A stretch of 58,865 nt of DNA, taken from positions 1 through 58,865 of the forward strand of contig JBFWVI010000017.1 of NCBI GenBank assembly GCA_050246815.1. The letters are read 5' to 3'. Made by a program: the position numbers and the translations under genes. The stretch is from Bdellovibrionales bacterium. GTDB lineage: Bacteria > Bdellovibrionota > Bdellovibrionia > Bdellovibrionales > UBA1609. The notes beneath the pieces were generated by a model, which ran no database searches, was not told the DNA's origin, and saw nothing but the letters and a program-made list of their open reading frames with translations. Positions 26,875-58,834 of this stretch are shown here, one piece after another. Positions within the stretch are counted from its first letter, which is position 1; each line of letters begins with the position of its first letter.

Positions 26875-26928
26875 AAAAACCCCAGGAAACCAATTTTATT
26901 TCCAGCCAAACTCATCTATACAAGAGAA

Positions 26929-28767: not shown

Positions 28768-28805
28768 ATGACAAATAATCCCATGGATGCGGGACAATCT
28801 GTCCC
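28768..28805. promoter_or_regulatory. Tandem activator sites upstream of the cco operon
   Basis: atgaca-aat-aatccc (28768) and perfect gggaca-atc-tgtccc (28791-28805). Confidence 0.7.
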
Positions 28806-28834
28806 AAATGCCCCCTTGCATATCCCTTTGCCCC

Positions 28835-28861
28835 TGGCATCTTTTTGGCAAAGCTCTGGCC
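28835..28861 (+). promoter_or_regulatory. sigma54 promoter candidate(s)
   Basis: tGGcatctttttgGCa (28835) or tGGcaaagctctgGCc (28846), both GG-N10-GC. Confidence 0.5.
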
Positions 28862-28863
28862 AT

Positions 28864-31032: not shown

Positions 31033-31190
31033 ACATTTTGGTTTTGATGATACCCATCACCTTTTTATTGAGCGCGGGTTTTTTAGCCGCATTTATTTGG
31101 GTCGTTAAGAGCGGCCAATATGACGACACCGAAACACCCGCGCACCGCATTCTTGTCGATGAAAACAAAGCTGAGGAGCAATCAACATGA
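31029..31190 (+). CDS. ccoS: cbb3 oxidase maturation protein (53 aa, missing from ORF track)
   Basis: GTG start: MNILVLMIPITFLLSAGFLAAFIWVVKSGQYDDTETPAHRILVDE...; overlaps both neighbours by 4 bp. Confidence 0.92.
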   Translation: MNILVLMIPITFLLSAGFLAAFIWVVKSGQYDDTETPAHRILVDENKAEEQST

Positions 31191-33331
31191 AATCGACCGA
31201 GCAAAACAAGTATGAAGACGTCATCTACGACGACGAGATCGTCAAGAAGTTCGCCCTGGCTACGATGGTATGGGGTGGAATCGCCTTCGTGGTGGGGCTG
31301 GTGGCCGCCCTGCAGTTGGCCTATTGGAAATTCAACTTCAATCTGGAATGGCTGAGTTTCGGACGGCTTCGCCCACTGCACACCAACGCAGCCATCTTCG
31401 CTTTCGCCGGCAACGCCATCTTCGCCGGCATTTATCACTCAAGCCAACGCCTGCTCAAAACCAGAATGTTCTCAGACGCCTTAAGCAAGATTCACTTTTG
31501 GGGTTGGCAATTAATCATCTTGGCCGCCGCGATCACCCTGCCGCTCGGCTACTCCCAGTCTAAAGAGTACGCCGAGCTGGAGTGGCCCATTGACCTATTG
31601 ATCACCCTGGTGTGGGTTGTTTTTGCGGTCAATTTTTTTGGAACTTTGGCAAAACGACGTGAAAAGCACATGTACGTGGCCATTTGGTTTTATATCGCCA
31701 CCATTATCACCGTGGCGGTTTTGCACATTGTTAATTCGATTGAAATTCCGGTTTCACTTTTTCAAAGTTACCCGGTTTACGCCGGTATCCAGGACGCCTT
31801 GGTGCAGTGGTGGTACGGGCACAACGCGGTGGCCTTCTTTTTAACTACGCCCTTTTTGGGTCTCATGTATTACTATCTGCCCAAAGCGGTCAATCGACCG
31901 GTCTACTCTTATCGACTGTCCATCATCCATTTTTGGGCTCTTGTTTTCATCTATATTTGGGCGGGGCCCCACCACTTGCTTTACACCTCACTCCCCGAAT
32001 GGGCGCAAACCCTAGGCATGGTCTTTTCATTGATGCTTTGGGCCCCTTCATGGGGCGGCATGATCAATGGTCTTTTGACCTTGCGGGGATCTTGGCACCT
32101 GCTGCGCACGGATCCGATCGTGAAGTTTTTGGTCACTGCGGTGACCTTCTATGGCATGTCGACCTTTGAAGGCCCCTTGCTTTCAATCAAATCGGTCAGC
32201 AGTCTGGCCCACTATACGGATTGGATCATCGCGCACGTGCATGGTGGTGCTCTGGGCTGGAACGGTTTTCTGACCTTTGCCATGCTCTACTATTTAGTGC
32301 CACGCTTATGGAACACCCAACTTCACAGCGTGAAGTTGGCAACCACCCACTTTTGGTTAGGTTTTTTGGGGATCATTCTTTACTACCTGTCCATGTGGGC
32401 CGCGGGCATCACCCAAGGTCTGATGTGGCGTGCGATCGATGCCAACGGCCGCTTGGTCTACCCCGATTTTGTTGAAACAGTGATGCGAATTGTACCCCTT
32501 TATTGGGTCCGCGCACTGGGTGGTTTGCTGTTCATCGCCGGCTTTTTGATCATGGTTTACAACATCTACAAAACCATCAAGTCGGCGCCCGTCAGTCACC
32601 CGCAGCGCTTAAGCGTGCTCAACACACGCCATGCACCCAGCGAGACCGGACACCGTCGGCTTGAAGGGGCCGCAACTGCCTTTTCGATACTCTCTCTCAT
32701 CGCGATCCTGGTGGGCTCGGTGATCGAGATTTATCCGACACTCTCTTTGCACAAATACATCCCTGCCAATATGCAGAGCCAGCCCTATAGCCCGCTCGAA
32801 TTGGCCGGACGCGACATCTACGTCAAAGAGGGTTGTTACGTCTGCCACTCGCAACAAATTCGTCCGCTGGCGGCGGAAATTCTTCGCTATGGCCCACCGT
32901 CAACCGTTGCCGAATCGATGTACGATCGTCCGTTTCAATGGGGCTCAAAGCGCACGGGTCCGGACTTGGCACGTGTCGGCCAGAAGTACCCCGATCTTTG
33001 GCACTACCGCCATATGATCGACCCCCGACTGGTCACGCCAAAATCAATCATGCCCGCATACCCCTGGCTGGCCTCGAAAAAGCTCGACTTTCAAATCTTG
33101 CGCAAAAAACTTTCGGTGATGCGCAATTTGGGCGTGCCTTATGACGACGAGACCGTGGCCAACGCTGACTTATTGGCCGGCAAACACGCCGCAAAAATCG
33201 CAGCGGAGCTTCACGCGCAAGGAGCACCAAAAGGATTGGACGATAAAGAAATCGTGGCCCTGATCGCCTATCTTCAAGCGCTGGGTCAAAAAAGCAAACC
33301 TGCTGCGGGTACAACCGCCCAAACGGAGTAA
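31187..33331 (+). CDS. ccoNO: cbb3 cytochrome c oxidase, fused subunits I/II
   Basis: RPLHTN, WWYGHN, GPHH, HVH; C-terminal GCYVCHSQ, WGSKRTGPDL. Confidence 0.96.
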   Translation: MKSTEQNKYEDVIYDDEIVKKFALATMVWGGIAFVVGLVAALQLAYWKFNFNLEWLSFGRLRPLHTNAAIFAFAGNAIFAGIYHSSQRLLKTRMFSDALSKIHFWGWQLIILAAAITLPLGYSQSKEYAELEWPIDLLITLVWVVFAVNFFGTLAKRREKHMYVAIWFYIATIITVAVLHIVNSIEIPVSLFQSYPVYAGIQDALVQWWYGHNAVAFFLTTPFLGLMYYYLPKAVNRPVYSYRLSIIHFWALVFIYIWAGPHHLLYTSLPEWAQTLGMVFSLMLWAPSWGGMINGLLTLRGSWHLLRTDPIVKFLVTAVTFYGMSTFEGPLLSIKSVSSLAHYTDWIIAHVHGGALGWNGFLTFAMLYYLVPRLWNTQLHSVKLATTHFWLGFLGIILYYLSMWAAGITQGLMWRAIDANGRLVYPDFVETVMRIVPLYWVRALGGLLFIAGFLIMVYNIYKTIKSAPVSHPQRLSVLNTRHAPSETGHRRLEGAATAFSILSLIAILVGSVIEIYPTLSLHKYIPANMQSQPYSPLELAGRDIYVKEGCYVCHSQQIRPLAAEILRYGPPSTVAESMYDRPFQWGSKRTGPDLARVGQKYPDLWHYRHMIDPRLVTPKSIMPAYPWLASKKLDFQILRKKLSVMRNLGVPYDDETVANADLLAGKHAAKIAAELHAQGAPKGLDDKEIVALIAYLQALGQKSKPAAGTTAQTE

Positions 33332-33334
33332 ACC

Positions 33335-33532
33335 ATGAAAGCCGAAGGACTCAAATATTTTAGCGACTCCCCGATCATGGTGATCGGGCTGCTGATTTTT
33401 GTGACCTGCTTCTTGGGGTATGTGCTGTGGGTGAACCGAAAAGGCTCTACCGATTTTTATCAAAGAATCGCATCCTTGCCGCTCAATGAACCGGATTCTG
33501 CAAAGGAGAACCACCATGTCGGACACAAATAA
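33335..33532 (+). CDS. ccoQ: cbb3 oxidase subunit CcoQ
   Basis: Single TM, ASLPL ending, position in operon. Confidence 0.8.
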   Translation: MKAEGLKYFSDSPIMVIGLLIFVTCFLGYVLWVNRKGSTDFYQRIASLPLNEPDSAKENHHVGHK

Positions 33533-34085
33533 AAACGATCCCACTCCGATGGACCATGCGTATGATGGCATACAAGAGTACGACAACCCCTTGCCCGCAT
33601 GGTGGTTGATCACGTTTTTTCTGACCATTATCTTCGGTTTCAACTACTGGATCGACGCCGAGTTCGCCGGACGTCAAACCCAGGTGCAGGAGGCCGAATC
33701 CGAAGTGGCCGCCCTACGCGCATTGAGTCCCACGACGGCTCAGCCGCAAGAAAGCGAAGATGAGTACAAACAATTGGCCGCCAGCGGCGCACTGGCCGCC
33801 CAAGGTAAGAGTGTCTATGTCGCAAAATGTGCGGCTTGCCACGGCGCTGAAGGTCAAGGTCTGATCGGACCCAATTTGACGGACGATCACTGGCTGAACG
33901 GCCGAGGTGGCTTTGTTGATGTGGCCAAAGTGGTTCGCCAGGGCGTGCTGGACAAAGGTATGCCCGCTTGGGAGACTCAAGTTAGCGCCGACGAATTAAA
34001 ACAAGTCGTGGTGTACGTGGTCAGCTTGGCCGGCACGCAGCCCGCCAACCCCAAACCTCCGCAAGGTGAGAAAGTCGCTCGCTAA
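33516..34085 (+). CDS. ccoP: cbb3 oxidase subunit III, short mono-heme form
   Basis: HAYDGIQEYDNPLPAWW, CAACHG, GPNLTD, GMPAW. Confidence 0.9.
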   Translation: MSDTNKNDPTPMDHAYDGIQEYDNPLPAWWLITFFLTIIFGFNYWIDAEFAGRQTQVQEAESEVAALRALSPTTAQPQESEDEYKQLAASGALAAQGKSVYVAKCAACHGAEGQGLIGPNLTDDHWLNGRGGFVDVAKVVRQGVLDKGMPAWETQVSADELKQVVVYVVSLAGTQPANPKPPQGEKVAR

Positions 34086-35479
34086 TGGAAACCCCCAGCC
34101 TGGAGAGATTATCGAGCCTCGACGAATGGGGGGATCGCAAACACATCATCCCCGCCAGCGTCACCGGGTATTGGAGAACCTTACGAACGCGGGTTTATTT
34201 CGTCTTGCTGATGATTTTTTTGATTGCGCCGTGGACCAAGGTCAACGGCCTGCAAACCATCTGGCTCGACATACCTGCCCGTCGTTTTACAATTTTGGGC
34301 CGAGTCTTTTTAGCGCATGAAGCACCGATGTTGTTCTTTATTTTCGGAATTTTGGTTTTGGGCCTCGCTCTGGTGACGGCTCTATGGGGGCGAGTCTGGT
34401 GTGGCTGGGCTTGTCCGCAGACTGTATTTATCGACACCATCTATCGCCGCATCGAAACTTGGATCGAAGGCGACTACATCAAAAGGCGTAAGCTTCGAAC
34501 GGCTCCCATCAACTTCGAAAAAATCTGGAAAGGCACACTGAAATGGGCCGCGTTCATTGCCGTCAGCTCTTTGATCGCCCACAGCTTTATCGCTTACTTT
34601 GCCGGCGCGGAGCCTCTTTTGAAGATGGTGCAAGCCGCACCTGGGACCAACTGGGGGTATTTTATCGTCGTGACCTTTGTCACGGCCGTCTTGGCTTTTG
34701 ATTTTGGTTGGTTTCGCGAGCAATTTTGCGTGATCATGTGCCCTTACGGCCGATTTCAATCTGTGCTGATGGATGAAGACTCCGTCACGGTCGTTTACGA
34801 CAAGGCCCGTGGCGAGCCCCGCCGCCGCAGCGTTCCCCAAGGACAAAAAATCGGCGACTGCGTGGCCTGCAACCGCTGCGTTGAAGTGTGCCCCACCGGA
34901 ATTGACATTCGCAACGGCACCCAGATGGAGTGCATCGGTTGCACGGCCTGCATCGACGCCTGCAACGAGATGATGGAGCGCGTGAAAAAGCCCACCAATC
35001 TGATTGCCTATCAAAACTTGACCAAAGCGCCAGCTCGCTGGAAGCGACCACGGGTTTTGGTGAACATTGTGCTGCTCGCCTTGATGACTCTGGGTTTGAG
35101 CGCCAATTTAGTCGGCCGCTCGACTTACTATGCCTCGGTTTTACGAGCCAAAGATGTCCCTTACCAGGTTCTGCCGAATGGCGAAGTAATCAATCATTTT
35201 AAACTGCATTTGCACAATCAATCCAATGCGAAGCAACGCTTTGAACTGGCTTTGGATCCAGAATGGATCGCCAAAGGATTGCGCTTGACCCACGCCCAGA
35301 CCAGCTACGACATCTTGCAAGGGCAAGATAAAGTCATTCACTTTTTCGTTAATTTTCCGGCTGTATTGACCGCCCAAACGGGAACGCTCAATCTAGTGCT
35401 GCAAGTCCGGGAGAACTTGTCCGCCACCACCAGTGAACTGTCGCTCAATGCCATTGGACCGCAAGCGAGCAACCCATAA
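34085..35479 (+). CDS. ccoG: cbb3 accessory 4Fe-4S protein
   Basis: GRVWCGWACPQT, CPYGRFQ, two CxxCxxCxxxC motifs. Confidence 0.93.
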   Translation: METPSLERLSSLDEWGDRKHIIPASVTGYWRTLRTRVYFVLLMIFLIAPWTKVNGLQTIWLDIPARRFTILGRVFLAHEAPMLFFIFGILVLGLALVTALWGRVWCGWACPQTVFIDTIYRRIETWIEGDYIKRRKLRTAPINFEKIWKGTLKWAAFIAVSSLIAHSFIAYFAGAEPLLKMVQAAPGTNWGYFIVVTFVTAVLAFDFGWFREQFCVIMCPYGRFQSVLMDEDSVTVVYDKARGEPRRRSVPQGQKIGDCVACNRCVEVCPTGIDIRNGTQMECIGCTACIDACNEMMERVKKPTNLIAYQNLTKAPARWKRPRVLVNIVLLALMTLGLSANLVGRSTYYASVLRAKDVPYQVLPNGEVINHFKLHLHNQSNAKQRFELALDPEWIAKGLRLTHAQTSYDILQGQDKVIHFFVNFPAVLTAQTGTLNLVLQVRENLSATTSELSLNAIGPQASNP

Positions 35480-46288: not shown

Positions 46289-47620
46289 TCAAATATCAAC
46301 CCACGGGAGAGATTTAACTAAGCCAACATGTTTTGTCCCAAGATACCTGGGAAAGTAGTTCCCGGTGAATCCAAACAACTTAAGAAGTGCTAATTCAAAA
46401 TACCAGAGCCCCAATTGGCGGCATTCATAAAGCGCATAGTCACTACTTTCTTGAGTCGTGTTGCGGTTCCTTGGATGTACGGTTGAGTTTCTAACCTTTG
46501 TAAACACCCCGGGACCGTCCCTGCCATCAATGTCACTACAAAGTTGAGTCAAGTGTGAAAACTCAGGTGGAATTTTAAGAGGAACACGCAGCTCCTTTAA
46601 CAATAGTCTTATCTTTGTTGCCGCATTCTTCTCATCAAATTTTTGGGGGTCATACTGTTTACCTTCTTCAACTAATAGAATCCAGCAGTAGAGCTCCAAT
46701 GCAGCCTGGAGCAATATTGCTGCACTTTCCATTGTGATGTTATTTTGGCTTTCAATATACCAATGAAGAAACTTAGACATGCTACCGCACCAAATGGGAT
46801 CCCGCCTGCGATCGGAAATACCATGTAAAAGCTGATTAAATCTTGTGGCTTCGGTGTCATCAAACCACGTGCCTGACGAGCTCCACTTTCCTACCCGTCT
46901 AGCTGTCCAGTCAAACCAACAGGCGTTGCCAGGCAATGAAAACCCAACATAGAGAATTGGGTAGGTCCAATGACCAAGTGCAAATGTAAACAGGTAGCCT
47001 AAATTAGTCAGGAGATCTTCAACTTCGTGAGGCAGAAATTCTGAATCATCTTTTTTATAAACATGCCCACAATACGTTAAGGCGAAACCTGAATTTTCTT
47101 TGATTGATTTTAAAGCTGATTTAATTGATTTAAGTGGGTCAAGATATATTTCCCATTCTCCAACCGTGAGATTAATCCTGCCCCGGATAGCCGTTGTTCC
47201 AATTTTGACAAAACTGCCACCCATCAACTGTGGTAAGTTTGCAAAATGAAAAGTTAGACCTTTTAGTTTTTTTTCACCTGATCGATCATTCTGCGGCAAT
47301 ACAATACCGACCAGGCTCAAAGCACTTGTGTCAGTCGAAAAGCTGGCATTAAGTATCCGAACCTTTAAACTAAAACCAACTTCCTTCAATTCGACATCAA
47401 CAATTTTCGAAGACAATGCGAGGGCCAGCGGCCCTAGCGTGCCGCTATATATGTCGATTTTTGTACCCTGAGTTGGAAAAAAATTATGATATACCCTGCC
47501 CGTCCCGTGCACGCACCTACCTTCAAATATGAAGCTCACACCCCCCGAATAAAGATCAATCGGCTTATTCGGCTCATGCTCATAGTAAGGCTTGAAGGCT
47601 TCAGGAAACTCATTGTCCAT
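46289..47620 (-). CDS. HEPN-domain protein (ApeA/YopA-like)
   Basis: C-terminal RNSTVH (RxxxxH), LQAALE helix, beta-rich N-terminal region, AT-rich DNA. Confidence 0.65.
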   Translation of the reverse strand: MDNEFPEAFKPYYEHEPNKPIDLYSGGVSFIFEGRCVHGTGRVYHNFFPTQGTKIDIYSGTLGPLALALSSKIVDVELKEVGFSLKVRILNASFSTDTSALSLVGIVLPQNDRSGEKKLKGLTFHFANLPQLMGGSFVKIGTTAIRGRINLTVGEWEIYLDPLKSIKSALKSIKENSGFALTYCGHVYKKDDSEFLPHEVEDLLTNLGYLFTFALGHWTYPILYVGFSLPGNACWFDWTARRVGKWSSSGTWFDDTEATRFNQLLHGISDRRRDPIWCGSMSKFLHWYIESQNNITMESAAILLQAALELYCWILLVEEGKQYDPQKFDEKNAATKIRLLLKELRVPLKIPPEFSHLTQLCSDIDGRDGPGVFTKVRNSTVHPRNRNTTQESSDYALYECRQLGLWYFELALLKLFGFTGNYFPRYLGTKHVGLVKSLPWVDI

Positions 47621-47830: not shown

Positions 47831-47861
47831 AAAAACACGGCGGCCACCACAGTGGCCGTCG
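47831..47861 (-). terminator. Putative intrinsic terminator after the HPF-like genes
   Basis: Minus strand gacggccac-tgtg-gtggccgcc then gtgttttt. Confidence 0.5.
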
Positions 47862-47914: not shown

Positions 47915-48238
47915 TTAAGACGCATGAGGCAAAAACACTCTTTTGCGCTTATGGATTTTTTTATTGGACAGCTCGTGAATTTGCTTCAATACCGTTTTTC
48001 TAACTTTTCGAAAAACCGCCATGATCTGCTTGCCGTCCTTTTTGACAATAATGGGTTTTTTCAAACCAAAGACGCTCATCGAAACCCAGAATAACCCCTT
48101 GTCTTTCGCCTCGGGTTCAATATGGATTTGCACGTCGGCCCGATCTCCCGTTTCGGCCTTAATCTCTTCGATCGTGCGATCCGCGTATTCCTTCAGGGCC
48201 TCGGTGAACATCAGCTCTTTGACATGAAATTCGGACAT
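47915..48238 (-). CDS. HPF/RaiA-like protein
   Basis: RBS AAGGAGG; FTEALKEYADRTIEEI start, beta-alpha-beta-beta-beta-alpha pattern, basic C-terminal helix. Confidence 0.6.
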   Translation of the reverse strand: MSEFHVKELMFTEALKEYADRTIEEIKAETGDRADVQIHIEPEAKDKGLFWVSMSVFGLKKPIIVKKDGKQIMAVFRKVRKTVLKQIHELSNKKIHKRKRVFLPHAS

Positions 48239-48248
48239 AAAACCTCCT

Positions 48249-48554
48249 TTAGTCGTCGTCGCCGACAAATCGGTGTTTTTTCCAATCCTCAAGTTGCAAG
48301 CGTATTTTTTCATCTAGGGCTTGCATGGCCTTGATCGGGGTATCACTGATTGTTTTGGCCACGAAAGTGCCTGCAATCGATGCGATCCGGCAGGTGGCTT
48401 CCACAACCCCTCGCCCTTTACGAAATGCCACGTTCATAGCCGAATCGCTTGGAGCCAGGCTTTGCAGCCCCTCCATCAAATCCGCGATCAGTTGGCGTGT
48501 TTCATACTCAGGCTTAAAATCCCTAAATTCTAATTGCGATCGATCAAACCCCAT
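48249..48554 (-). CDS. Divergent HPF/RaiA-like small protein
   Basis: Same predicted topology; FVA...P..A...L...I..QL..W...RF. Confidence 0.5.
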   Translation of the reverse strand: MGFDRSQLEFRDFKPEYETRQLIADLMEGLQSLAPSDSAMNVAFRKGRGVVEATCRIASIAGTFVAKTISDTPIKAMQALDEKIRLQLEDWKKHRFVGDDD

Positions 48555-48776
48555 CCTTAATCCTCCTTAAAAAGCGCCACTGGTCTTGCAAAGAAGACTA
48601 AACTTGTTTAGTCGACTGGTGCTCCGGGACAACGCTTTTTCTTACAAAACGACGAACTTTTATTCAGTGTGCTCTGGCGGCGCGTTTAGGGTTGGTTTCA
48701 TACGGACCTCCTTTAAAAGGTTTCTGAAGACGAGAACTTTAAAAGAGTTGTGCAGCCACATCCTGCCTCGCCTAAC

Positions 48777-48804
48777 AAGATATATCCGACTCAAAAAATG
48801 TCAA
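48777..48804 (-). promoter_or_regulatory. sigma70-type promoter
   Basis: TTGACA-16-TATCTT upstream of the HPF-like genes. Confidence 0.45.
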
Positions 48805-48906
48805 GGTTGGGCGTGCCATTTTTGAGCAAAAAAACCTGCTGCTAAAAACTGCATTTTCAAATGGCATAAATCAAACTTTTATCTGGAAATAAAAAACACT
48901 TCAGAA

Positions 48907-49434
48907 TCAAACTGACAGGCCTAGAGTCCAAATTTTTCGCCAATCCTGATTATTGTGAATAAAAATTGTTTTTTCGCGCATATCAGGAAGCAACAAAATG
49001 CGCAGCATCTCGGGACGCATTTTTTGATGAACTTGCCATAAACTGCGGTAGGACTTCAAGACCTGCACCCAACCGTTCTCATTGCAATCGGCCGGCAGCT
49101 CCACGCGACGGGACCACAGATTTTTTACCTGCCGCTTGCTGCACCACCAATAATGATGCCAAAGCGGCCAATCCAAAAAGACGATCTTGTTGGCCAGCCG
49201 TAAACGTTCTTCTAAAATATCCAAGGGCCCATAACCGTCGATCAACCAGCTTTCTTGAGCCTGAACACACCGCAGTTCGGCAATGGACTCGGCATGGGGG
49301 CGGATCCGCATCGGCGGCAAGAACTGAATGGAGTCCACGTGAGTAAGCGGTAAATTGTGTCGCTTTGCCAGGTGACGGCTAAGTGTAGTCTTGCCGCCGC
49401 AGGAATTGCCGATCACCACTACTTTTTGAATCAT
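48907..49434 (-). CDS. FlaR/topology-modulation-like P-loop kinase
   Basis: GNSCGGKTT, WLIDGY, IVFLD. Confidence 0.78.
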   Translation of the reverse strand: MIQKVVVIGNSCGGKTTLSRHLAKRHNLPLTHVDSIQFLPPMRIRPHAESIAELRCVQAQESWLIDGYGPLDILEERLRLANKIVFLDWPLWHHYWWCSKRQVKNLWSRRVELPADCNENGWVQVLKSYRSLWQVHQKMRPEMLRILLLPDMREKTIFIHNNQDWRKIWTLGLSV

Positions 49435-51776
49435 GTGGACGAGGCACTGGCGAAACTACGAATGGTGCGCACCAAAAGTTTGCTATCCAAGGGTTTAGTC
49501 ATATGGGCATTACAACCTGCTTGAAAAATCCGAGTGCGCTCTTCACTCATCGCGTGGGCGGTCAATGCCAAGATCGGCTTTTTGTAGCCACTCGCCCTTA
49601 AACGCTTGGTCGCAGCGTATCCATCCAGCACCGGCATCTGCATATCCATCAAAACCACGTCATAATCCGCAGTGCGGGCTTTCTCGACTCCTTCGGCGCC
49701 GTTGCTGGCAATGTCGACTTTTATGCCCGCACGACGAAGCAATGCGCTGACCAAAACTTGATTGTCTAGGGCGTCTTCAACAAGCAACACTCGCGCGGCC
49801 GCGCAGGCCGCCTCAGTTGAAATATTCTCGTGGGCCTGTGGAGATGAAGGTTCACGAACCACGTGCGCCTCGATCGTCGCGATAAACGTACAGCCCCTCT
49901 CGGTCGATTTTGGCGCCAAAACAACATCCCCGCCCAACGCTCGAGCCAAGCGCCGCGACAACACCAACCCCAAGCCGGACCCTCCAAACTTGCGCGTGGT
50001 GCTGTCATCCGCCTGCGAAAATGGTTCAAACAAACCCCGCGACTGACTCTCACTTAAACCCACCCCGGTGTCTTTTATTTGAAAGTGCAGCTGAACGACT
50101 TGAGAGGTTTTCCAAACCGGCTCCACTTGAATCTCAACCTGCCCGTCCGCCGTGAACTTCACCGCATTGCCGATCAAGTTGATTAGAATTTGGCGTAGGC
50201 GGGCCGGATCGGAATTGACGACTTCGGGGGTGAGGGGCGCTAGGCTCGCCTTCAACGTAACCCCTTTTGTGGCGGCGGCTTCTTGGAACAAGCTTAAAAC
50301 TTCCTCCAGCAAACTCTCGACGCGAAAGTCCACGCGCTCGAAAACCAGGCGCCCTGCTTCTACCTTGGAGAGGTCCAAAATATCATCGATTAAGCGGGTC
50401 AAAGCCTTGCCATTGCGTGTGATCGCCTGCGCGTAATCAGCCTTTTCGGAAAGTTGGGTGCTTTCTTTCAGTAACTCAGAAAACCCCAGAACCGCTCCAA
50501 GCGGGGTTCGGATCTCGTGGCTCATATTGGCCAAAAATGCGCTCTTGGAGCGATTGGCAGCCTCGGCTAGCTCTTTGGCTTGGCGCAATTCATTTTCTAA
50601 AGTCTTTTGATCATGAATGTCGGTATTGGTTCCATACCACTGCACGATCATTTCAAAGTCGTCACGCACAGCGGTGGCACGCCCCAAGTGCCAGCGGTAC
50701 TCGCCATCGTGCCGGCGCAAGCGGTACTCAACCTCGTAAGGCTTGCCCGTGATCAAGGATTCTTGCCAATTCTCCATGGTCATCGCGTAATCATCGGGAT
50801 GCAGGATTGGGCGATCTTTCCAATGCCACCCCCTTCGATCACCCACCGGCAAATCCAGGTAGCGATAAAAGCGCTCATTCAGATAGATCATTTGTCCCTG
50901 AGCGTCGGTGATAAAGGCCATCTGTGGCATCGCCTCGGCAAAAGTACGAATGCGCGCTTCACTGGCACGCTGATACTCATCGTACTGCTTGCGATCAGTC
51001 ACATCCAAAGTCACGCCGGCCATCGAAATCGCCCGACCCGAGGAATCGAATTCTGCCCGACCCGTCGAATAGAGCCAGCGTATCTGACCATCTGGGCGGA
51101 TAATCCGATATTCATGGGCAAAAAAAGTGCGGTTGCGAATGGCTTCTTCCCACAGACGAAAGGTTTCGGCGACGTCGTCTGAATGAAGCAGGCGTTTGCT
51201 GATCTCAATGAAGTTGTCGGTCGGAGGAATCGCACCCAACATCTTTTCAATTTGCTCGGAAAGCGCTATTTTATTGGTTTTTAAGTCCACATTCCAAGCG
51301 CCCATCTGCGCGCAGCTCAGGGCCAGATTCAGCTGTTGCTGGCTTTCTTCAAGCCTACGACGCGCAAGCACCTTGTCTGTCACATCCATGCCATGCGCAA
51401 AAATGCCCGCAGGCTGACCATGCTCGTCATGCAGCGGCTGGTAGACAACATCCAAAAAGCGCCTTTCCAAAACCCCAAAAGGAGTTCGCTGCATGTCAAC
51501 CTGAACTTCACTCCCCATATAAGGCACACCCGTTTGGATCACCTTTTTCATTAAATCGACATACCCTTGGGCTGCGGCCTCGGGCAGGGCTTGCGCCAAA
51601 GGTTTACCCACCACGTCCCGATGGCCGATGATCTCTTGATAGCGGGCATTCAATTTTTCAAAAATCAGGTCGGGGCCACGCAAAATGGCCATATAGGTCG
51701 GCGATAGGTCAAAAACCTCTTCAATCCTGCGGCCTGATGGCTGAACGACGGTAGGGGACGCTTGCTTTCCGTTCAT
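49431..51776 (-). CDS. Hybrid sensor kinase (3 PAS-HK-REC)
   Basis: Three PAS domains, SHEIRTP, GGSGLGL, REC with MDMQMP. Confidence 0.92.
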   Translation of the reverse strand: MNGKQASPTVVQPSGRRIEEVFDLSPTYMAILRGPDLIFEKLNARYQEIIGHRDVVGKPLAQALPEAAAQGYVDLMKKVIQTGVPYMGSEVQVDMQRTPFGVLERRFLDVVYQPLHDEHGQPAGIFAHGMDVTDKVLARRRLEESQQQLNLALSCAQMGAWNVDLKTNKIALSEQIEKMLGAIPPTDNFIEISKRLLHSDDVAETFRLWEEAIRNRTFFAHEYRIIRPDGQIRWLYSTGRAEFDSSGRAISMAGVTLDVTDRKQYDEYQRASEARIRTFAEAMPQMAFITDAQGQMIYLNERFYRYLDLPVGDRRGWHWKDRPILHPDDYAMTMENWQESLITGKPYEVEYRLRRHDGEYRWHLGRATAVRDDFEMIVQWYGTNTDIHDQKTLENELRQAKELAEAANRSKSAFLANMSHEIRTPLGAVLGFSELLKESTQLSEKADYAQAITRNGKALTRLIDDILDLSKVEAGRLVFERVDFRVESLLEEVLSLFQEAAATKGVTLKASLAPLTPEVVNSDPARLRQILINLIGNAVKFTADGQVEIQVEPVWKTSQVVQLHFQIKDTGVGLSESQSRGLFEPFSQADDSTTRKFGGSGLGLVLSRRLARALGGDVVLAPKSTERGCTFIATIEAHVVREPSSPQAHENISTEAACAAARVLLVEDALDNQVLVSALLRRAGIKVDIASNGAEGVEKARTADYDVVLMDMQMPVLDGYAATKRLRASGYKKPILALTAHAMSEERTRIFQAGCNAHMTKPLDSKLLVRTIRSFASASST

Positions 51777-51844
51777 AGGGGCTTTGTTTTAGCTTATTTC
51801 GGTCGCATGCGATAGGGCGGAAATTATGTAAAAACGTTAACAAC

Positions 51845-52381
51845 TCACAAGCCCACCATCAATCCGAAGGTTGGTCCAGAACGACCGTCTGCTAAATCAG
51901 AATTGGTTATGCCGGCAACGAAGCGATAACCACCGCTCAGGGCAATATTGTCCCCCACCCGCACAGTCACCCCCAGAGACGTGGCTGAGGCCAAACCCAA
52001 TTCACTTTCGTAATTCGGGCCCGCGGCGGGTTCAGGGTCGATGGGGTTTCGTACATCCAAATAAAGGAGCTCTTGACGGATGTGGCCGATGAACACCTCG
52101 CCCAGTCTTTCGGCGTAGCTGACAAAAGCGCCTCCGCCATATTCGCGGTCACGCGAGGCACGGTCACCAGCCGCGTAGTGCCCGGTCAGCCCCATGCGCC
52201 AATTCTGGTTGGCCGCCATACCCAAATCTAAACCAAAAACATAGCTGGTTCCTTGCTGCGAATTAAAGCCCACGCCCACTTGGGGGTGAAAATACCAACT
52301 GTCTTCAGATTGAGCCACCGTATGCCAGGCAAAGCTAATCATCACGAATAGGGCCAGTAAAATAGGGCTTTTCATTGGCAC
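51845..52381 (-). CDS. Outer-membrane beta-barrel-like protein
   Basis: Signal peptide, amphipathic beta strands. Confidence 0.55.
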   Translation of the reverse strand: MPMKSPILLALFVMISFAWHTVAQSEDSWYFHPQVGVGFNSQQGTSYVFGLDLGMAANQNWRMGLTGHYAAGDRASRDREYGGGAFVSYAERLGEVFIGHIRQELLYLDVRNPIDPEPAAGPNYESELGLASATSLGVTVRVGDNIALSGGYRFVAGITNSDLADGRSGPTFGLMVGL

Positions 52382-52575
52382 CTCCGAAGCTCAGTAGCCT
52401 CCTGTCGTGTCATAAAGTCAATCGCTTGCCCGACGCTGCACGCTAGTCTAGAGTTTATCGGCACCAATAACTGGTCAGGCCGGTCACATTGAAATTGCTT
52501 AAGGCGCGCTTTGCCTTAGACTTTTAATGCACCGATCAAAAACAACATTTTCCCATACGGGAAGGGAGTCATTAA

Positions 52576-52839
52576 ATGAACAAAAATATTTCTGCCTTGC
52601 TAAAGGCTGCCGTGGTCTCTGGCTTTACCGCCGGCAGCATCGCTTATGCAGACGACCAAACCACCCCTCCTCCGGCTGATGGCGCAAGTGCACCGCAAGC
52701 TGAAGGCGAAAAGAACAAGTGCAAAGGCCACAAGGCCAAGCACGACAAACATGCGAAGGGCAAAAAGGACAAATCTGGCTGCAACGGCAAGCATGGCTGC
52801 GGTGGCGAAGCTGAGAAAAAAGAAGAAGCTCCTAAGTAA
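52576..52839 (+). CDS. Exported Cys/His/Lys-rich RiPP precursor (bufferin BufA2-like)
   Basis: Signal peptide ..IAYA, KCKGH...SGCNGKHGCGG, directly upstream of DUF692. Confidence 0.75.
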   Translation: MNKNISALLKAAVVSGFTAGSIAYADDQTTPPPADGASAPQAEGEKNKCKGHKAKHDKHAKGKKDKSGCNGKHGCGGEAEKKEEAPK

Positions 52840-52848
52840 GGACATGGG

Positions 52849-53694
52849 ATGAATCGACTGTTCACAGATCATGGCATTGGAGTCGGGCTTAGGCCGGCCC
52901 ATTACCACCGGTTCCTTGAATCAAAACCGAGTAGCGTGAATTGGGTCGAAGTCATCACAGAAAACTTCATGAAGTGGGGGGACTTAAAAACTTTTAAGCC
53001 CCTCCACAATTTAGAAAAAATTCGTCGTGAAGTGCCCGTGGCTCTTCACGGGGTTTCGCTGTCCATCGGCTCGGCCGATGAGCTTAACTGGGACTACCTT
53101 AAAGCCCTCAAAGAATTAAAACACAACATCGAACCTCTATGGGTTTCAGATCATCTGTGCTGGACCGGCGTAAACGGCGAAAACTTGCATGATCTGCTGC
53201 CCCTGCCCTACACGGAATCCGCCTTGAACCACGTGGTCGATAAAATTCGACGCGTTCAAGACTTCTTGCAAAGCAGGATTCTGATTGAGAACGTGTCAAG
53301 CTATGTGAGTTTCAAAGACTCCGAAATGGCCGAATGGGAATTTATAGATCAAGTCGCCCGGCGAGCGGAATGCGGACTTCTTTTGGATGTAAACAATGTG
53401 TTTGTAAGCGCTATCAATCATGGCTTCGACCCCCAAAAATACATTGATCAAATGCCGACGGGCCTGGTTGGACAAATTCATTTGGCGGGTCACACCGAAA
53501 AAGATGGTTATCTGATCGACACCCACGATGCACCCGTGCGCCCCGAAGTGTGGGATCTATATCGTTACACCCTGCAGACAGTGGGCCTGGCCAGCTCGAT
53601 GATCGAACGCGATGACAACATCCCCGAATGGTATGAATTGGAACTTGAACTCAAACAAGCGCAGAGGATTTACGATGATGTCCGAACTGCGTGA
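52849..53694 (+). CDS. MNIO (DUF692) RiPP maturase, BufB-like
   Basis: GVGLR, ENF, HGVSLSIG, SDHL, IENVS, DVNN, IHLAGH, IDTH, IERD. Confidence 0.93.
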   Translation: MNRLFTDHGIGVGLRPAHYHRFLESKPSSVNWVEVITENFMKWGDLKTFKPLHNLEKIRREVPVALHGVSLSIGSADELNWDYLKALKELKHNIEPLWVSDHLCWTGVNGENLHDLLPLPYTESALNHVVDKIRRVQDFLQSRILIENVSSYVSFKDSEMAEWEFIDQVARRAECGLLLDVNNVFVSAINHGFDPQKYIDQMPTGLVGQIHLAGHTEKDGYLIDTHDAPVRPEVWDLYRYTLQTVGLASSMIERDDNIPEWYELELELKQAQRIYDDVRTA

Positions 53695-54355
53695 GCTGCA
53701 AACCCTTTTTGTCGCGGCGATACGCAACGAAAATCCCGAAGCCGTTGAAAATATGCCGATCCACGAAACCGCCCAGGCCTCTAAGGCCGTACGTTTGGGC
53801 GTTTATGCTTATGCTTACCGGCAACGGATTCTAGACTCCCTAGCCGAAGACTTTCCCGTGACTTTTGAAAATTTGGGTGAAAACGCCATTCACACAGTCC
53901 GTGAATTTGTCAAAACACAAAGAACGGGGGTTCCTAGCCTTGGCGAGGTTTCGCGGCTGTTCTTCGAATTTCTGTCGCATGCCCGCCCTGACTTGAAAAG
54001 TGATCTCAGTTTGGATTACGCGTTTTTGCTTGCGGGGCTCGAAGACTGGAGCCTGAAACTACAGAGTATAAGCCCCTTAACAGCTGAACAACTGGCAAGC
54101 TCCAAACCGCAGAATGTTCGCGCACTTTGGAATCATTCGCTGCGTGTGGTTGGCGACACTCTCATCTTTCAAAAGAACGGCCTGCTTGAATCCGCACCGG
54201 CGTCGCCCCATGTTTTAAGCCTTTTGCAACAGCGGAAAACAATTTCAAATCTTGAACAACTTCTAATCGCCGTCGAACACATGGGCTTAACGCCCGTCCA
54301 AACAGCTGATTTAGTTCACTTCTTGACTCGAAATGAACTCCTGATTTGGCACTAA
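53678..54355 (+). CDS. DUF2063 partner protein, BufC-like
   Basis: ELQTLF, RLGVYAYAYRQRILDSLAEDFP; start 53675 or 53678. Confidence 0.82.
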   Translation: MSELRELQTLFVAAIRNENPEAVENMPIHETAQASKAVRLGVYAYAYRQRILDSLAEDFPVTFENLGENAIHTVREFVKTQRTGVPSLGEVSRLFFEFLSHARPDLKSDLSLDYAFLLAGLEDWSLKLQSISPLTAEQLASSKPQNVRALWNHSLRVVGDTLIFQKNGLLESAPASPHVLSLLQQRKTISNLEQLLIAVEHMGLTPVQTADLVHFLTRNELLIWH

Positions 54356-54371
54356 GGTACGGACGAATTGT

Positions 54372-55058
54372 TCAAGCGGCTCTAAATGAGTACCCCCGAC
54401 CATACACTGAAACAATGCAGTTCTTGGCAGAACCTATTTTTTTTCGCAAATGCGCAACATGGGTGTCAATGCCACGAGATTCAATATTGGTACCGTACGC
54501 CTGCCATATTAATTTTTCCAACTCGGGTCTGGTTAAAACTTTGTTTTCACTGCGGCAAAGCAATAGCAGCAATCGAAACTCCGTGGGCGTTAAATTCAGA
54601 TTTTGCCGCTCCTCGCCTTGGACACTGTAGCAAACCTGAAAATCAAGATCGAATTCAAAACCCGCCTTCAAAAAAACCTTCTTTTCGGGCGACTTAGATC
54701 GACGCAAGTAGCGGTCGACGCGGGCCCTTAACTCGCGGCCCTGAAACGGCTTCGTCAAATAATCATCGGCCCCATGCGCAAATGCGTACTCTTTATCAGC
54801 CACTTGATCCAAAGCGGTGAGCAGGATTTTTGGCGTGTCTAGGTACTTTTGACTCTCGACCAGTTTGCCGCACAGGTCCATGCCATTTCCATCAGGCAAA
54901 AGCGCATCGATCAACAGTAAATCGTAGGTCTTTAATGAAAGCGCGTTCTCGGCTTGCGACAAAGTGTAAACCTGTTCAACCTGGTGCTCTCCCTTCATAC
55001 CCTCTCCAACTAAAACGCCCACCTCGTCGTTGTCGTCGATCAATAAGATATTGGCCAC
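54372..55058 (-). CDS. OmpR-family response regulator
   Basis: REC, LTPTEFRLL, DTHVAHLRKK, VYGRGY. Confidence 0.92.
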   Translation of the reverse strand: MANILLIDDNDEVGVLVGEGMKGEHQVEQVYTLSQAENALSLKTYDLLLIDALLPDGNGMDLCGKLVESQKYLDTPKILLTALDQVADKEYAFAHGADDYLTKPFQGRELRARVDRYLRRSKSPEKKVFLKAGFEFDLDFQVCYSVQGEERQNLNLTPTEFRLLLLLCRSENKVLTRPELEKLIWQAYGTNIESRGIDTHVAHLRKKIGSAKNCIVSVYGRGYSFRAA

Positions 55059-55278
55059 AATTTGCTCCTTTAATTTAAAACACTAAATAAAATAAGTGTA
55101 TGTTGCCTTTATCGGCGATGCTTCGTGCAACAATAGTCGAAAAATTGCATTCTCATTTTGGACAAGCAATCTACACAACTATTCTCAATTTGACCGCTTC
55201 AATCCCACCATCAACATGCCGATCTAGACATCTCAACACATCATCAAGATTTGTTTTGCCATACTGAATCACAGAAGG

Positions 55279-55794
55279 ATGGATCAAATGCTTAAAACTA
55301 ATTTCATTTATGAAGAAAATAACAGTCTGGCAACCCCGTCACGATCGTTGGAGACTCCCATTCCCCCCAAGGAATTCAACCGCTCTGCCAACGTTCTTAT
55401 TATCGATGACGATGTGGACTCAGCCTTGCTTGTCGAATCTGTATTCGCACATCTGGGTTGCCAGACCACTTGCTCCTTAAGTTCTGACGAGGCCCGCCGT
55501 CGCCTCAACTCTCTTAAGGCCGACTTCATTATATTGGACTGGTGCCTGGATCATCAGATCGAGGCCAGCCAGATTATTAGCCAGTGCACCCAGACTTTTG
55601 GTAAGTTCGACAAAAAAATAGGCCATGGCCCGCGCCGTAAACCTAAAATTATCACCTACTCAAGTCTCAACGAAAAAGAGATTGAGCCGCTGCAAAGTCC
55701 CTACTTCCAGCACATTGATCACTGGCAAAAACCCATTTCTCACCGCGAATTGTTAAGCCGCGTACTGCACTTGTTGCAAAAAACGGGGCCCTAG
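55279..55794 (+). CDS. Atypical single-domain response regulator
   Basis: IIDDD, ILDW, ITYS, WQKP. Confidence 0.75.
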   Translation: MDQMLKTNFIYEENNSLATPSRSLETPIPPKEFNRSANVLIIDDDVDSALLVESVFAHLGCQTTCSLSSDEARRRLNSLKADFIILDWCLDHQIEASQIISQCTQTFGKFDKKIGHGPRRKPKIITYSSLNEKEIEPLQSPYFQHIDHWQKPISHRELLSRVLHLLQKTGP

Positions 55795-55805
55795 CAGGAG
55801 GACTT

Positions 55806-56540
55806 ATGAACAATCCAATGATTGAAGCCCAAGTCGAACGCATCTGGCATGAAGAACTTCCCGAGTTGATCCAACACATGCCCTACAACAGCTGGTGCCA
55901 GCCAACTCTTTCTAGGTCGGAAAGAGGCTGGCGCTTTGTATTCCGTTGTAACGCAGAAGCCTGCCGCTTTTTTGCCGCCGCTATTGGCAGCACGCCCATG
56001 GAAGCATTTTTGATCGTCAAACACCATCTGGCCAACCAAATGCGGCGCTGGCACGACTTACGTTTTGGCAATGCCCAAGAACGCTCACGGCTTGAAAGCC
56101 TTGCTTTGCCCGTCACGGCAGAAATTCCTAAGGTCTTGATTGTTGACGACGACCTCGACACCGCACTATCTATGCAGGTCGCCTTTAAACAATTAGGCTG
56201 CGAGACCGAGGTTGCCACTCAGCACGAGGGCCTTCATCACAAGCTGATTTCAAGTCAAGCCGACTACATCTTTTTAGATTGGCGGCTGAATGACCAAGTC
56301 ACTGCCGGCGAAGTCGTGGAAAAGGCCGTGCGCTTGATCGAGACCTTTTCTGACCTACAAGAGAAATTTTTGAATCATCGCCCGCGCATCGTCACCTATT
56401 CCGCGCTCAAACGCGGACAAATTGCACTCCCTCATCACGGCGATCATTATTTCAAACATTTAGATCATTGGGAAAAACCCATGCCGTTCACCGAAGTGAT
56501 TGAGCGAGCATCCGAAGTTTTTTTGATCCCACACTCGTAA
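55806..56540 (+). CDS. HPF-like domain fused to an atypical receiver domain
   Basis: N-terminus aligns with 48249-48554; C-terminal REC is paralogous to 55279-55794. Confidence 0.7.
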   Translation: MNNPMIEAQVERIWHEELPELIQHMPYNSWCQPTLSRSERGWRFVFRCNAEACRFFAAAIGSTPMEAFLIVKHHLANQMRRWHDLRFGNAQERSRLESLALPVTAEIPKVLIVDDDLDTALSMQVAFKQLGCETEVATQHEGLHHKLISSQADYIFLDWRLNDQVTAGEVVEKAVRLIETFSDLQEKFLNHRPRIVTYSALKRGQIALPHHGDHYFKHLDHWEKPMPFTEVIERASEVFLIPHS

Positions 56541-56552
56541 AGGAGGCATCTG

Positions 56553-56888
56553 ATGAGAGCACATGAAGAGCACTTCAACACACTCATGAACATGGTCCCC
56601 ATGGACTTACGACATCTGGTGCCAGGTTTTCTTGAAAGACGCGAAAAAGACGTGGAAGACATGACCTTGATGCTGAACGCGGAAGACTTCCCCAGTATCA
56701 AAGCCTCTGCTCATAAATTAAAAGGCATGGGGGCAGGATACGGTTTTCAGATTGTCTCGGACATAGGTCGCGAAATCGAAGCGGCTGCAATCCGTCATGA
56801 CGTTCGTGGGTTAAAAAGTGGAATTGATCAGTTGGCTGAAGTAACACGAAATTTAAAAATGATTTTGAATCAACGTCGCGACTTTTGA
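56553..56888 (+). CDS. Hpt phosphotransfer protein
   Basis: AHKLKGMGAGYG. Confidence 0.88.
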   Translation: MRAHEEHFNTLMNMVPMDLRHLVPGFLERREKDVEDMTLMLNAEDFPSIKASAHKLKGMGAGYGFQIVSDIGREIEAAAIRHDVRGLKSGIDQLAEVTRNLKMILNQRRDF

Positions 56889-56908
56889 TTCAAATCGAGG
56901 TGGTCGAC

Positions 56909-58834
56909 ATGAGATTTTTAATGATCGAGGATCAAAAACTAAACTTGGATCCCTTAGAGACCCTTGTTTGCGCCAGTGAACTCTCGCCAAAAGCAAAAGT
57001 GACCAGAACGCGGGATTTAAACCACGCCATCAGCGCCCTGCAACATCAAAGCTTTGAAATGATTTTCATCGGTGCCGGGCACCTGGAGGCCAACTTGGCT
57101 GGCGGACTTAAGACGTTGCGCGAAAGCAGCGGCGAAGCCCCGATCGTGATTGTTACGGACAAAAATATAGAGGATTTTGGACAAGAGGCCATTCGATGGG
57201 AAGCGGACGACTTTATAGACCGTTCGGATTTTAACCTGAAAATGGTCCGACGAATCATGCGCTATGCAAAGGTTTCTTTTCAGGCCAGTCAATCGGCCCG
57301 GGCCAAATCCGCTTTTTTAGCCAATATGAGCCATGAAATCCGCACGCCCTTGAACTTAATCATCGGCACAGCGGACATTTTGGCTGAAACTCAATTGACG
57401 CAGCAGCAGCGCCGGCTCATCAGCACCTTCACTAACGCCGGCAATCATTTACTGACTTTGCTCAGTGACGTTTTGGACCTAAGCCAAATCGAAGGCCAAG
57501 GGTTGCGCTGCCTAAAAAACACTTTCGATTTAAATGAAGTTTTTTTTGAGTCCTGCAATTTAGTCGGTGTTTTGTGCCGCTCAAAGAAACTCAAGTTTGA
57601 CTATTTGCTGGGTCAAGGTATTCCCTCCGCATGCCGCGGCGACAAAGTCCGAATTCGCCAAGTGATGTTGAATCTTTTGAATAACGCGGTGAAATTCACA
57701 AAAAGGGGTAAGATCGAACTGCGTTTGGAAGTTTTAGAACGTCAAGACAACGAGGTCGCGGTGCGCTTTATCGTGCGCGACACGGGCATCGGTATGGACA
57801 AAAAGGCCTTGGACCACGCCTATAGTTACTTTTACCAACGTGAAGCCGGCCTTGAAAGAACTTATCGCGGTGGGGGATTGGGCCTGTCACTCGTGAAGGC
57901 CATAGCGGAACACTATCACGGCTCCACGGAAATCATCTCGGCCGACGGCGAAGGCACCGAAGTCCGCGTGACCTTGCGACTTGAGCTTGAACCTGCCACC
58001 ATGGTGTCGCCGCAAATGCATTTGCAAAATAAAAAAATTCATCTGGTCACTTATGGAGAACTAGAAGCGCAATCGATTCGCCATCAACTACAACGTCTGG
58101 GCGCTCGCGTCACTCACAACACCTCCGGCGAACTGGCTTTGCAGCGGCTCGCAAATGAGCCGGACTATGATTATCTATTGCTTGACGTGCAAACCTCGGA
58201 CATCGGAGGCCTTGATCTTCTTGGTCGCCATGATTTTACTTTTCCGCGCGAAAACGTCATCATGCTTTTGCCACCCTTGCACCGACAGCGGGATGTGGAG
58301 GACTGCAGCCAATTGGGCGTGACCCGCTCGCTTTACAAACCCTTCTCGGTCACGCGTTTTTTGGAATTGACGGGGCACCTGCAGCCGATTGAAAAAATCA
58401 AATCCGGCCCTGCGTCTTTTAGCCCCTTGGAAATTTTGGTCGTGGATGATGACCTGGACAATCGTGAATTGGTTGCGGCTTACTTAGCCAAAACGCCCCA
58501 CCGGGTCACCTATGCCAAAGACGGGCAAGAGGCGATCAACTTGTCCAAGGATCGAAGTTTCGATTTGATTATGATGGACATCGAAATGCCTGGTCTAAAT
58601 GGCTATGAAACCGCCAAGCGCATCAAAGAGCAAGAGCTTGGCCAATTCAGCAAAATTTTGGGTGTATCCGCCAACGCCTTTCCGGAAAACATCACTGAAG
58701 CCAAGCAAGCTGGTTTTTCTGGATATCTCACCAAGCCAATACGCAAAGAGCGCCTTTTGAACTCGATCATGGAATGCGCGTCCTCAGAGCAGTTTTTAGA
58801 AGTCGCACCGTCCACAGCCTATGAAAGAACTTAA
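56909..58834 (+). CDS. Hybrid histidine kinase (degenerate REC-HK-REC-REC)
   Basis: SHEIRTP, NAVKFT, DTGIG, GLGL, two C-terminal REC domains. Confidence 0.9.
   Translation: MRFLMIEDQKLNLDPLETLVCASELSPKAKVTRTRDLNHAISALQHQSFEMIFIGAGHLEANLAGGLKTLRESSGEAPIVIVTDKNIEDFGQEAIRWEADDFIDRSDFNLKMVRRIMRYAKVSFQASQSARAKSAFLANMSHEIRTPLNLIIGTADILAETQLTQQQRRLISTFTNAGNHLLTLLSDVLDLSQIEGQGLRCLKNTFDLNEVFFESCNLVGVLCRSKKLKFDYLLGQGIPSACRGDKVRIRQVMLNLLNNAVKFTKRGKIELRLEVLERQDNEVAVRFIVRDTGIGMDKKALDHAYSYFYQREAGLERTYRGGGLGLSLVKAIAEHYHGSTEIISADGEGTEVRVTLRLELEPATMVSPQMHLQNKKIHLVTYGELEAQSIRHQLQRLGARVTHNTSGELALQRLANEPDYDYLLLDVQTSDIGGLDLLGRHDFTFPRENVIMLLPPLHRQRDVEDCSQLGVTRSLYKPFSVTRFLELTGHLQPIEKIKSGPASFSPLEILVVDDDLDNRELVAAYLAKTPHRVTYAKDGQEAINLSKDRSFDLIMMDIEMPGLNGYETAKRIKEQELGQFSKILGVSANAFPENITEAKQAGFSGYLTKPIRKERLLNSIMECASSEQFLEVAPSTAYERT

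Follow-up and report, generated by a model that had tools for sequence, protein, structure and literature searches.

The window considered here, which is the whole stretch of DNA that was analysed, comprises 58,865 nucleotides of contig JBFWVI010000017.1 (Bdellovibrionales bacterium, assembly GCA_050246815.1, positions 1–58,865, forward strand). It encodes a protein, F, in which a domain assigned by profile comparison to the ribosome-hibernation family HPF/RaiA precedes a receiver (REC) domain, together with two adjacent stand-alone proteins, A and B, which we assign to the same family. The genes on which the analysis centres are the following:

47915–48238, minus strand: B, a 107-residue diverged HPF/RaiA-fold protein of a second subfamily, with a strongly basic helix 2; overlaps or abuts A.
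48249–48554, minus strand: A, a 101-residue stand-alone diverged HPF/RaiA-fold protein with predicted β-α-β-β-β-α topology.
55279–55794, plus strand: R, a single-domain receiver, the closest paralogue of the F receiver (35%, tblastn).
55806–56540, plus strand: F, an HPF-derived N-domain (residues 4–87), a flexible linker and a receiver with D115, D116, D158, S199 and K224.
56553–56888, plus strand: Hpt phosphotransfer protein (PF01627, 34.5 bits; His in AHKLKG).
56885–58834, plus strand: hybrid histidine kinase with a degenerate N-terminal REC, HisKA, HATPase and two REC domains (Pfam).

AGGAGG-type ribosome-binding sites precede the starts at 48554, 48238, 55806 and 56553 (A, B, F and Hpt, respectively), and that of B supports a start at 48238 over one at 48313. 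The operon order REC, F, Hpt, hybrid kinase, described in the first-pass annotation of this DNA, is confirmed; the first two intergenic gaps measure 11 and 12 nt, and the Hpt and kinase genes overlap or are separated by a short gap.

Direct scans gave no match of A, B or F to PF02482 at E ≤ 1 (Pfam) or to TIGR00741 at E ≤ 0.05 (NCBIfam), so that their assignment to HPF required profiles and models. Searches of proteins by word index had little sensitivity: the A sequence retrieved only itself, and the A profile nine proteins. The first-pass annotation had made the assignment from a residue pattern, in an ungapped alignment of 67 residues of A with the N-terminus of F. The 15 identities reported there were recovered exactly (A residues 30–96, offset 9) and include P35, S38, R56, F64, A66, I69, T72, P73, A76, Q87, W91, R95 and F96, with E16 as a sixteenth. 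None of 2000 shuffles of F residues 1–105 attained the local score of 46, as did 3 of 2000 when the whole of F was shuffled, and profile-profile comparison of F with the A family gave 98.6% (E 1e-15, 86 columns). Relatives of the window proteins pass the PF02482 cut-off of 23.7 bits, namely the A paralogue on contig C49 of the same genome (24.5 bits) and two homologues of B (25.1 and 24.9 bits), and 12/30 A-family members match PF02482 at E ≤ 1 (best 4.3e-7). Against PDB sequences, the first 18 of the 21 matches to the A profile are HPF/RaiA/pY chains (best E 8.5e-6). Likewise, an AlphaFold2 (AF2) model of A (pLDDT 90.4, β-α-β-β-β-α) retrieved HPF/RaiA/pY structures in all listed Foldseek matches to rank 38 (best E 2.8e-6), with TM by query of 0.64–0.81 to HPF/RaiA structures among the matches listed. 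HHalign against the canonical HPFs of the order gave 97.2% for A and 77.9% for F; a B profile built from 7 sequences retrieved no HPF from the PDB sequences and gave 4.6% against the canonical profile.

The AF2 model of F (pLDDT 87.6, pTM 0.58) comprises an α-β-β-β-α unit at residues 4–87 in which the first strand, β1, is missing, a poorly defined linker and a CheY fold. An Atlas model of F1–96 gave TM 0.68–0.72 against S30AE clusters, below the Atlas naming bar, while whole-F structure searches returned only receivers among the matches listed and hence say nothing about the N-domain. The folds of A and F, and the loss of β1 in F, are model predictions. Family profiles, the A model and the homologues above the PF02482 cut-off nevertheless uphold the original assignment, and on these sequence comparisons A, B and the F N-domain are diverged HPF/RaiA-family domains. 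A candidate relationship between A and B as duplicates of one domain was rejected, their pairwise score being reached by 1312 of 2000 shuffles; with HHalign giving 88.9% for B against the A profile, they are, as judged by sequence, separate HPF-fold subfamilies. The earlier description of an HPF-like domain present twice alone and once fused is therefore right as to the family of all three proteins and wrong in taking A and B for two copies of one domain.

The F receiver scores 22.5 against PF00072, short of the 30.2 cut-off, for which a helix insertion is a plausible reason. Its structure matches (VIA Z up to 14.7, rmsd 2.6 over 118 residues) identify a CheY fold, and D115, D158, S199 and K224 are kept in 39/39 full-length fusions. 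An Hpt gene lies directly downstream in 13 of 23 other distinct fusion loci, which include kin and are not independent; a further 4 have an Hpt gene or domain nearby, and 6 have none labelled, two of these being short contigs. The conserved Hpt neighbourhood and the intact receiver bear out the link to a phosphorelay suggested earlier, and gene order makes it likely that F is phosphorylated through Hpt. OmpR-type regulators, sigma-54 activators and CsbD-like genes recur around the fusion loci. Across the fusion family the linker between N-domain and receiver is 5 to 38 residues long, and 19/42 fusions, F not among them, have an N-terminal hydrophobic segment.

The N-terminal receiver of the hybrid kinase (56885–57290) is apparently without an acceptor Asp (a pseudo-receiver), and no sensor domain was detected by Pfam. 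A second hybrid kinase with three PAS domains (49431–51776, minus strand), between the A-B pair and the fusion operon, is a possible input to the same Hpt. At two other loci (L017:10487–11599 and L085:7078–8187) the kinase homologue behind the fusion is about 370 residues long; in the shortened L017 protein Pfam found REC and HisKA, and no ATPase domain. (Here and below, G000 is the genome of the window; other G, L and P numbers are sampled genomes, loci and sequence clusters.)

The first-pass annotation had proposed a ribosome-binding output for F, and the residues that mediate such binding in other HPFs offer a measure of this. In S. aureus HPF, the quadruple substitution K27A/R30A/K84A/R87A is reported to abolish ribosome binding (PMC4889938), and both helices of RafH are described as contacting 16S rRNA via basic residues (PMC10799931). 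We mapped the four S. aureus sites by inference from table offsets and the ungapped HHalign register, with no structural superposition. The mean number of basic residues at these sites falls from 3.5 in canonical HPFs (n = 28) to 1.2 in stand-alone A-type proteins (n = 142, made up of 30 aligned members and 112 short cluster representatives, some possibly redundant, with P0032 left out), 1.1 in early fusions (n = 10) and 0.7 in derived fusions (n = 29 scorable out of 32). The canonical C27 HPF has 4/4, A and B have 1/4 each, and F has 0/4, the mapped residues being E20, Q23, H74 and N77. The two helix-1 sites are occupied by Asp or Glu in 21/29 and 22/30 derived fusions, and the mean net charge of α1-α2 is +3.0 in canonical HPFs, +3.3 in stand-alones, +1.4 in early fusions and −0.8 in derived fusions, in which distal helix 2 is still net basic (+2.4). 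A β1 motif, crude in that it also misses 9/28 canonical HPFs, is present in 111/142 stand-alones, 8/10 early fusions and 2/30 derived fusions. An HPF-like ribosome-binding output is thus not supported for F, which has none of the mapped basic residues and belongs to a clade with an acidic helix 1, a net charge below zero and β1 predicted absent. Retained instead is a new signature, P...QxxxW(K/H)xxRF (P35...QxxxW91KxxR95F in the A family), present in all, partly by construction of the search; in derived fusions W and R are each invariant in 32/32 and P in 30/30.

The A profile matches 105/151 sampled genomes of the order (~70%). Within the phylum, A alone matches 52/301 genomes and F 7/301 at 1e-8, and all 12 of the 12 loci with a taxon label are Bdellovibrionales, Bdellovibrio or Pseudobdellovibrionaceae. 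A profile of the F N-domain (7 sequences) retrieved 603 clusters (50% identity) at E ≤ 0.001, the best 150 of which were covered by our census of fusions. Forty of these 150 are at least 150 residues long; 36 of 39 scanned carry a receiver, and P0004 has a receiver on record, giving the fusion architecture in 37 of the best 150 clusters. One fusion, P0085, matches PF02482 (E 3.3e-4) and REC together. Unfused pairs in which a REC gene is followed by an A-type gene, beside Hpt/OmpR genes, occur at 2/28 stand-alone loci (L031 and L040). In a tree of 69 receivers (the L040 receiver left out), fused receivers fall together with adjoining single receivers in one subfamily (support 0.895), and R joins the receivers of derived fusions (support 0.99). 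Given this single subfamily and the unfused pairs, the fusion is likely to have arisen from such REC-A gene pairs, with R a duplicate. In the tree of the HPF-like domain itself, which has 83 columns, weak deep support and includes 10/28 canonical and 30/112 representative sequences, 31/32 derived fusions fall in one clade (support 0.995) and early fusions are scattered with weak support. In the ESM Atlas, unnamed clusters with similar features are commonest in Planctomycetota, Bacteroidota and Myxococcota, and HPF-ECF sigma fusions occur in Acidobacteriota; families with a diverged HPF fold may extend beyond Bdellovibrionales.

The regulatory setting of the stand-alone genes and of the fusion operon is described by four further features of the window:

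48777–48804, minus strand: predicted A-B promoter, TTGACA-N16-TATCTT, of a shape shared with the dnaK, clpB and hsp20 upstream regions of the genome.
47841–47858, minus strand: terminator-like hairpin 3′ of B, by consensus match alone (2 found versus 2.2 expected in shuffles).
55190–55217, plus strand: TTGAC-N17-CAACAT motif, 89 nt before the REC gene R; its matrix score is only 2.9 and it may be due to chance.
54372–55058, minus strand: divergent OmpR-type response regulator (REC and Trans_reg_C, Pfam), a recurring neighbour of the fusion operon.

CTTGACA is found upstream of 11/37 A-type genes and 7/768 controls, and of none of the 27 canonical hpf genes or 19 fusion operons. A matrix built from 15 A-gene sites in other genomes gave scores of 19.3 and 16.9 for the dnaK and clpB genes of this genome, 10.8 for A, 7.6 for lon, 6.2 for groES and 3.1 for dnaJ, the 99th percentile of controls being 10.7; we take these five genes to be dnaK, clpB, lon, groES and dnaJ from their motifs. 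A pattern chosen post hoc, TTGAC-N17-YA-N3-T, is a candidate heat-shock promoter consensus for Bdellovibrionales; it occurs at 7/9 chaperone/protease genes and 15/37 A genes, as against 19/1334 controls, at none of the 27 canonical hpf genes and, among 19 fusion operons, only at that of the window itself. Its carriers in this genome include dnaK (C43), clpB (C5) and hsp20 (C49). An Hsp20 gene lies within 1.5 kb at 6/28 stand-alone loci (72/93 neighbours scanned). A sigma-54 promoter for the window genes was considered and rejected: at a match of at least 10/11 it was found at 0/37 A genes and 0/19 fusion operons, and the strict TGGCAY-N5-TTGC box at 2/21 fusion genes (L105, L106), 1/8 single-REC genes (L040), 12/1334 controls and nowhere in the window. 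FNR-type palindromes were found at 0/37 A genes, and the region has no listed RNA holder. Both V. cholerae raiA and archaeal hibA are reported to be under heat-shock control (PMC13324472 for hibA), and the RpoH-annotated factor of B. bacteriovorus has been argued to be without an RpoH box (PMC3464611). Judged by their promoters and neighbours, the stand-alone A-type proteins resemble stress factors and may be induced by heat shock.

The genome of the window encodes three stand-alone A-type proteins, two B-type proteins, one weakly matching third type and one canonical HPF, the last behind rpoN (57.5 bits, and above the TIGR00741 cut-off). Its second A-B pair, on contig C49 (L001:1773–4422; 45% for A and 58% for B), lies downstream of hsp20 and has grown to three tandem HPF-fold-like genes, A′, B′ and the third type, plus a conserved unknown gene, where the window copy is A-B only; blocks resembling this tandem occur in L024, L025 and L026. 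The third stand-alone A-type gene (C92:7190–7474; L110:4194–4475) is convergent with an OmpR-type regulator gene. In four other genomes (G016, G358, G383 and G386) neither PF02482 nor the canonical profile found a match; in a control search the true canonical-type positives were G000 and G306 only, a match in G396 being A-type and one in G394 lying in a 981-residue frame. In G016 and G386 hpf is missing between rpoN and the next gene, presumably metK. All four (L121–L124) have two A-type matches each, one of those in G016 being a fusion, so that A-type genes are retained even in 1.3–1.5 Mb genomes without a detected canonical HPF. Such persistence is consistent with A-type proteins having taken the place of HPF, or with their having a separate function. 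Being net basic, often carrying a dnaK/clpB-type promoter and persisting where no canonical HPF was detected, the stand-alone A-type proteins may still guard ribosomes.

What, then, might F do? In PhyR, an N-terminal sigma-like domain placed before a C-terminal receiver is reported to capture NepR in a phosphorylation-driven partner switch (PMC4551977). By analogy we tentatively suggest that F could be a PhyR-like, phosphorylation-switched protein-binding decoy of its stand-alone paralogues rather than a ribosome plug, a reading that we hold with less than even confidence. The hybrid kinase would pass phosphate through Hpt to D158 of F, with R, the OmpR-type regulator and, at some loci, a sigma-54 activator as parallel targets. 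Phosphorylation would then expose or hide the surface bearing the invariant P26, W82 and R86, common to F and the stand-alones, and F would act as a switchable decoy for partners of the likely heat-shock-induced paralogues; B-type proteins are candidate partners, though B is found in few loci. We favour this reading because the surface shared with the stand-alones is kept by selection as features facing the rRNA are eroded, and because an N-terminal copy joined to a C-terminal receiver is the PhyR layout.

Several considerations weigh against the decoy. No partner protein of F was identified, and the invariance of W and R is partly built in, since matches were gathered with profiles holding that motif; W82 and P26 may also be purely structural. 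The comparison of contact residues has its own weaknesses: the S. aureus sites were transferred by offsets and an ungapped register and not by superposition, basic residues in F could have shifted (the distal end of helix 2 carries the invariant R86), and A-type proteins score 1.2 yet persist without a detected canonical HPF, so that the four-site test may under-call binding. Moreover, solved HPFs are reported to share only one fully conserved residue (PMC10618245, section 7), which indicates that HPF binding tolerates divergence. This tolerance, and the resemblance of the stand-alones to stress factors, leave room for ribosome binding by F.

A hibernation factor gated by phosphorylation is accordingly the first alternative, in which the N-domain would bind the 30S cleft via shifted contacts and the state of the receiver would decide; in a variant, binding to idle ribosomes would tune the F receiver as a phosphate sink. 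By profile and predicted fold the family is a true HPF one, P0085 is recognisable as both PF02482 and REC, and the early fusions keep β1 and a positive mean charge. HibA, a sensor-fused HPF, is reported to bind ribosomes (PMC13324472), and Csp-, SigE- and CBS-HPF chimeras are described as coexisting with canonical HPF (bioRxiv 2025.11.04.686544, section 10). The Hsp20 neighbours and chaperone-type promoters of the stand-alone relatives, the heat-shock control of raiA and hibA and the retention of A-type genes in the four genomes without a detected canonical HPF point the same way. However, this alternative has to accommodate the absence of all four mapped basic residues from F, its acidic helix 1 and missing β1, whereas RafH is described as using basic residues on both helices to bind 16S rRNA (PMC10799931), and short linkers and frequent N-terminal hydrophobic anchors would, we infer, be awkward for the 30S cleft. 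We consider it unlikely for F, and phosphorylation-gated ribosome binding more plausible for the early fusions. In its fullest form, a Bdellovibrionales HPF domain wired into a His-Asp phosphorelay would let F-type proteins, around half of which would be anchored in the membrane, plug or sense idle ribosomes depending on the state of the receiver, via new P/W/R contacts shared with overlooked heat-shock HPF paralogues that replace canonical HPF in some genomes; this too seems doubtful.

F might also be, in effect, a single-domain receiver serving as a phosphate sink or relay modulator, its HPF part being a read-through appendage for stability or localisation without an output of its own. The unfused REC-A pairs at L031 and L040, the presence just upstream of F of R, a near-paralogous receiver without an N-domain, the low-confidence AF2 linker with pTM 0.58 and the weakly supported scatter of early fusions in the domain tree would all suit such an appendage, but retention of the domain in 37 of the best 150 clusters, with P/W/R invariant across a strongly supported clade, is hard to explain without selection and makes this improbable. 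Least probable is a response regulator binding other RNA, such as an mRNA leader or small RNA, in the manner of ANTAR proteins through a dsRBD-like module left by β1 loss: the predicted α-β-β-β-α topology, the basic distal helix 2 and a weak Foldseek match of the A model to a DCL4-hairpin RNA complex (rank 39, E 4e-3) speak for it, and a net neutral to acidic domain and the absence of any RNA element near the fusion genes in a scan of promoter-type motifs only speak against it.

Elsewhere in the window, 52576–54355 (plus strand) holds a cassette of the type making ribosomally synthesised and post-translationally modified peptides, with a small Cys/His/Lys-rich precursor (signal-like N-terminus), an MbnB/TglH/ChrH enzyme (353 bits) and a DUF2063 partner, which we take to resemble metal-buffering peptide clusters. 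A lone 443-residue gene just downstream of B (46289–47620, minus strand) has a weak Apea-like HEPN match (E 0.069). Earlier parts of the window carry three P-type ATPases, a sigma-54 activator with a PAS kinase and a cbb3 oxidase cluster (7732–13492, 25383–28062 and 28768–35479).

The A-type family escapes standard annotation although some 70% of the genomes sampled from this predatory order carry it. Where canonical HPF has been lost, its stand-alone members are candidates for the ‘missing’ hibernation factors, a gap stressed in bioRxiv 2025.11.04.686544. If F binds ribosomes, it would bring direct, minutes-scale phosphorylation control to hibernation, which is known to be controlled through expression or metabolites; should F not bind them, it would be a clear case of an HPF fold repurposed as a signalling module.

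With HPF/RaiA/YfiA (PF02482, TIGR00741), A shares the predicted fold; profile homology and a conserved helix-2 Gln are further likenesses, and some A and B homologues lie above the Pfam cut-off. The window proteins differ in that A, B and F themselves have no S30AE match at E ≤ 1, the basic patches are eroded, the P/W/R signature is new, F is without a predicted β1, and the A, B and F genes lie outside the rpoN operon in several copies per genome. RafH of mycobacteria is likewise a second, stress-specific HPF paralogue, and its Trp after helix 2 is reported to stack on 16S rRNA (PMC10799931), but RafH is described as keeping basic residues on both helices, and we do not equate its W96 with W91 of A or W82 of F. 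With PhyR, F shares the domain order of an N-terminal copy of another protein and a C-terminal REC, and a partner switch in F would be by analogy only; the N-domains are not homologous, and no NepR-like partner was identified for F. The first-pass annotation knew of no described phosphorelay with a ribosome-binding output, and we found no HPF-receiver fusion in listings of literature pairing HPF/RaiA/S30AE with a receiver domain, response regulator, Bdellovibrio or Bdellovibrionota; the terms ‘response regulator’ and ‘Bdellovibrio’ are absent from the main texts, as available to us, of bioRxiv 2025.11.04.686544, whose supplements, outside our scope, could bear on novelty, and of PMC13324472. 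Fusions of HPF to Csp, SigE or CBS modules are already known, and it is the receiver fusion that we did not find in print. HibA (CBS-HPF; PMC13324472) and the Csp-, SigE- and CBS-HPF chimeras (bioRxiv 2025.11.04.686544, section 10) are, as described there, the nearest in design to F, joining an HPF domain to a sensing or stress module and coexisting with canonical HPF. HibA, however, is reported to bind ribosomes, whereas F has lost the mapped contacts, and unlike these chimeras F has as its partner module a phosphorylatable receiver in a His-Asp relay.

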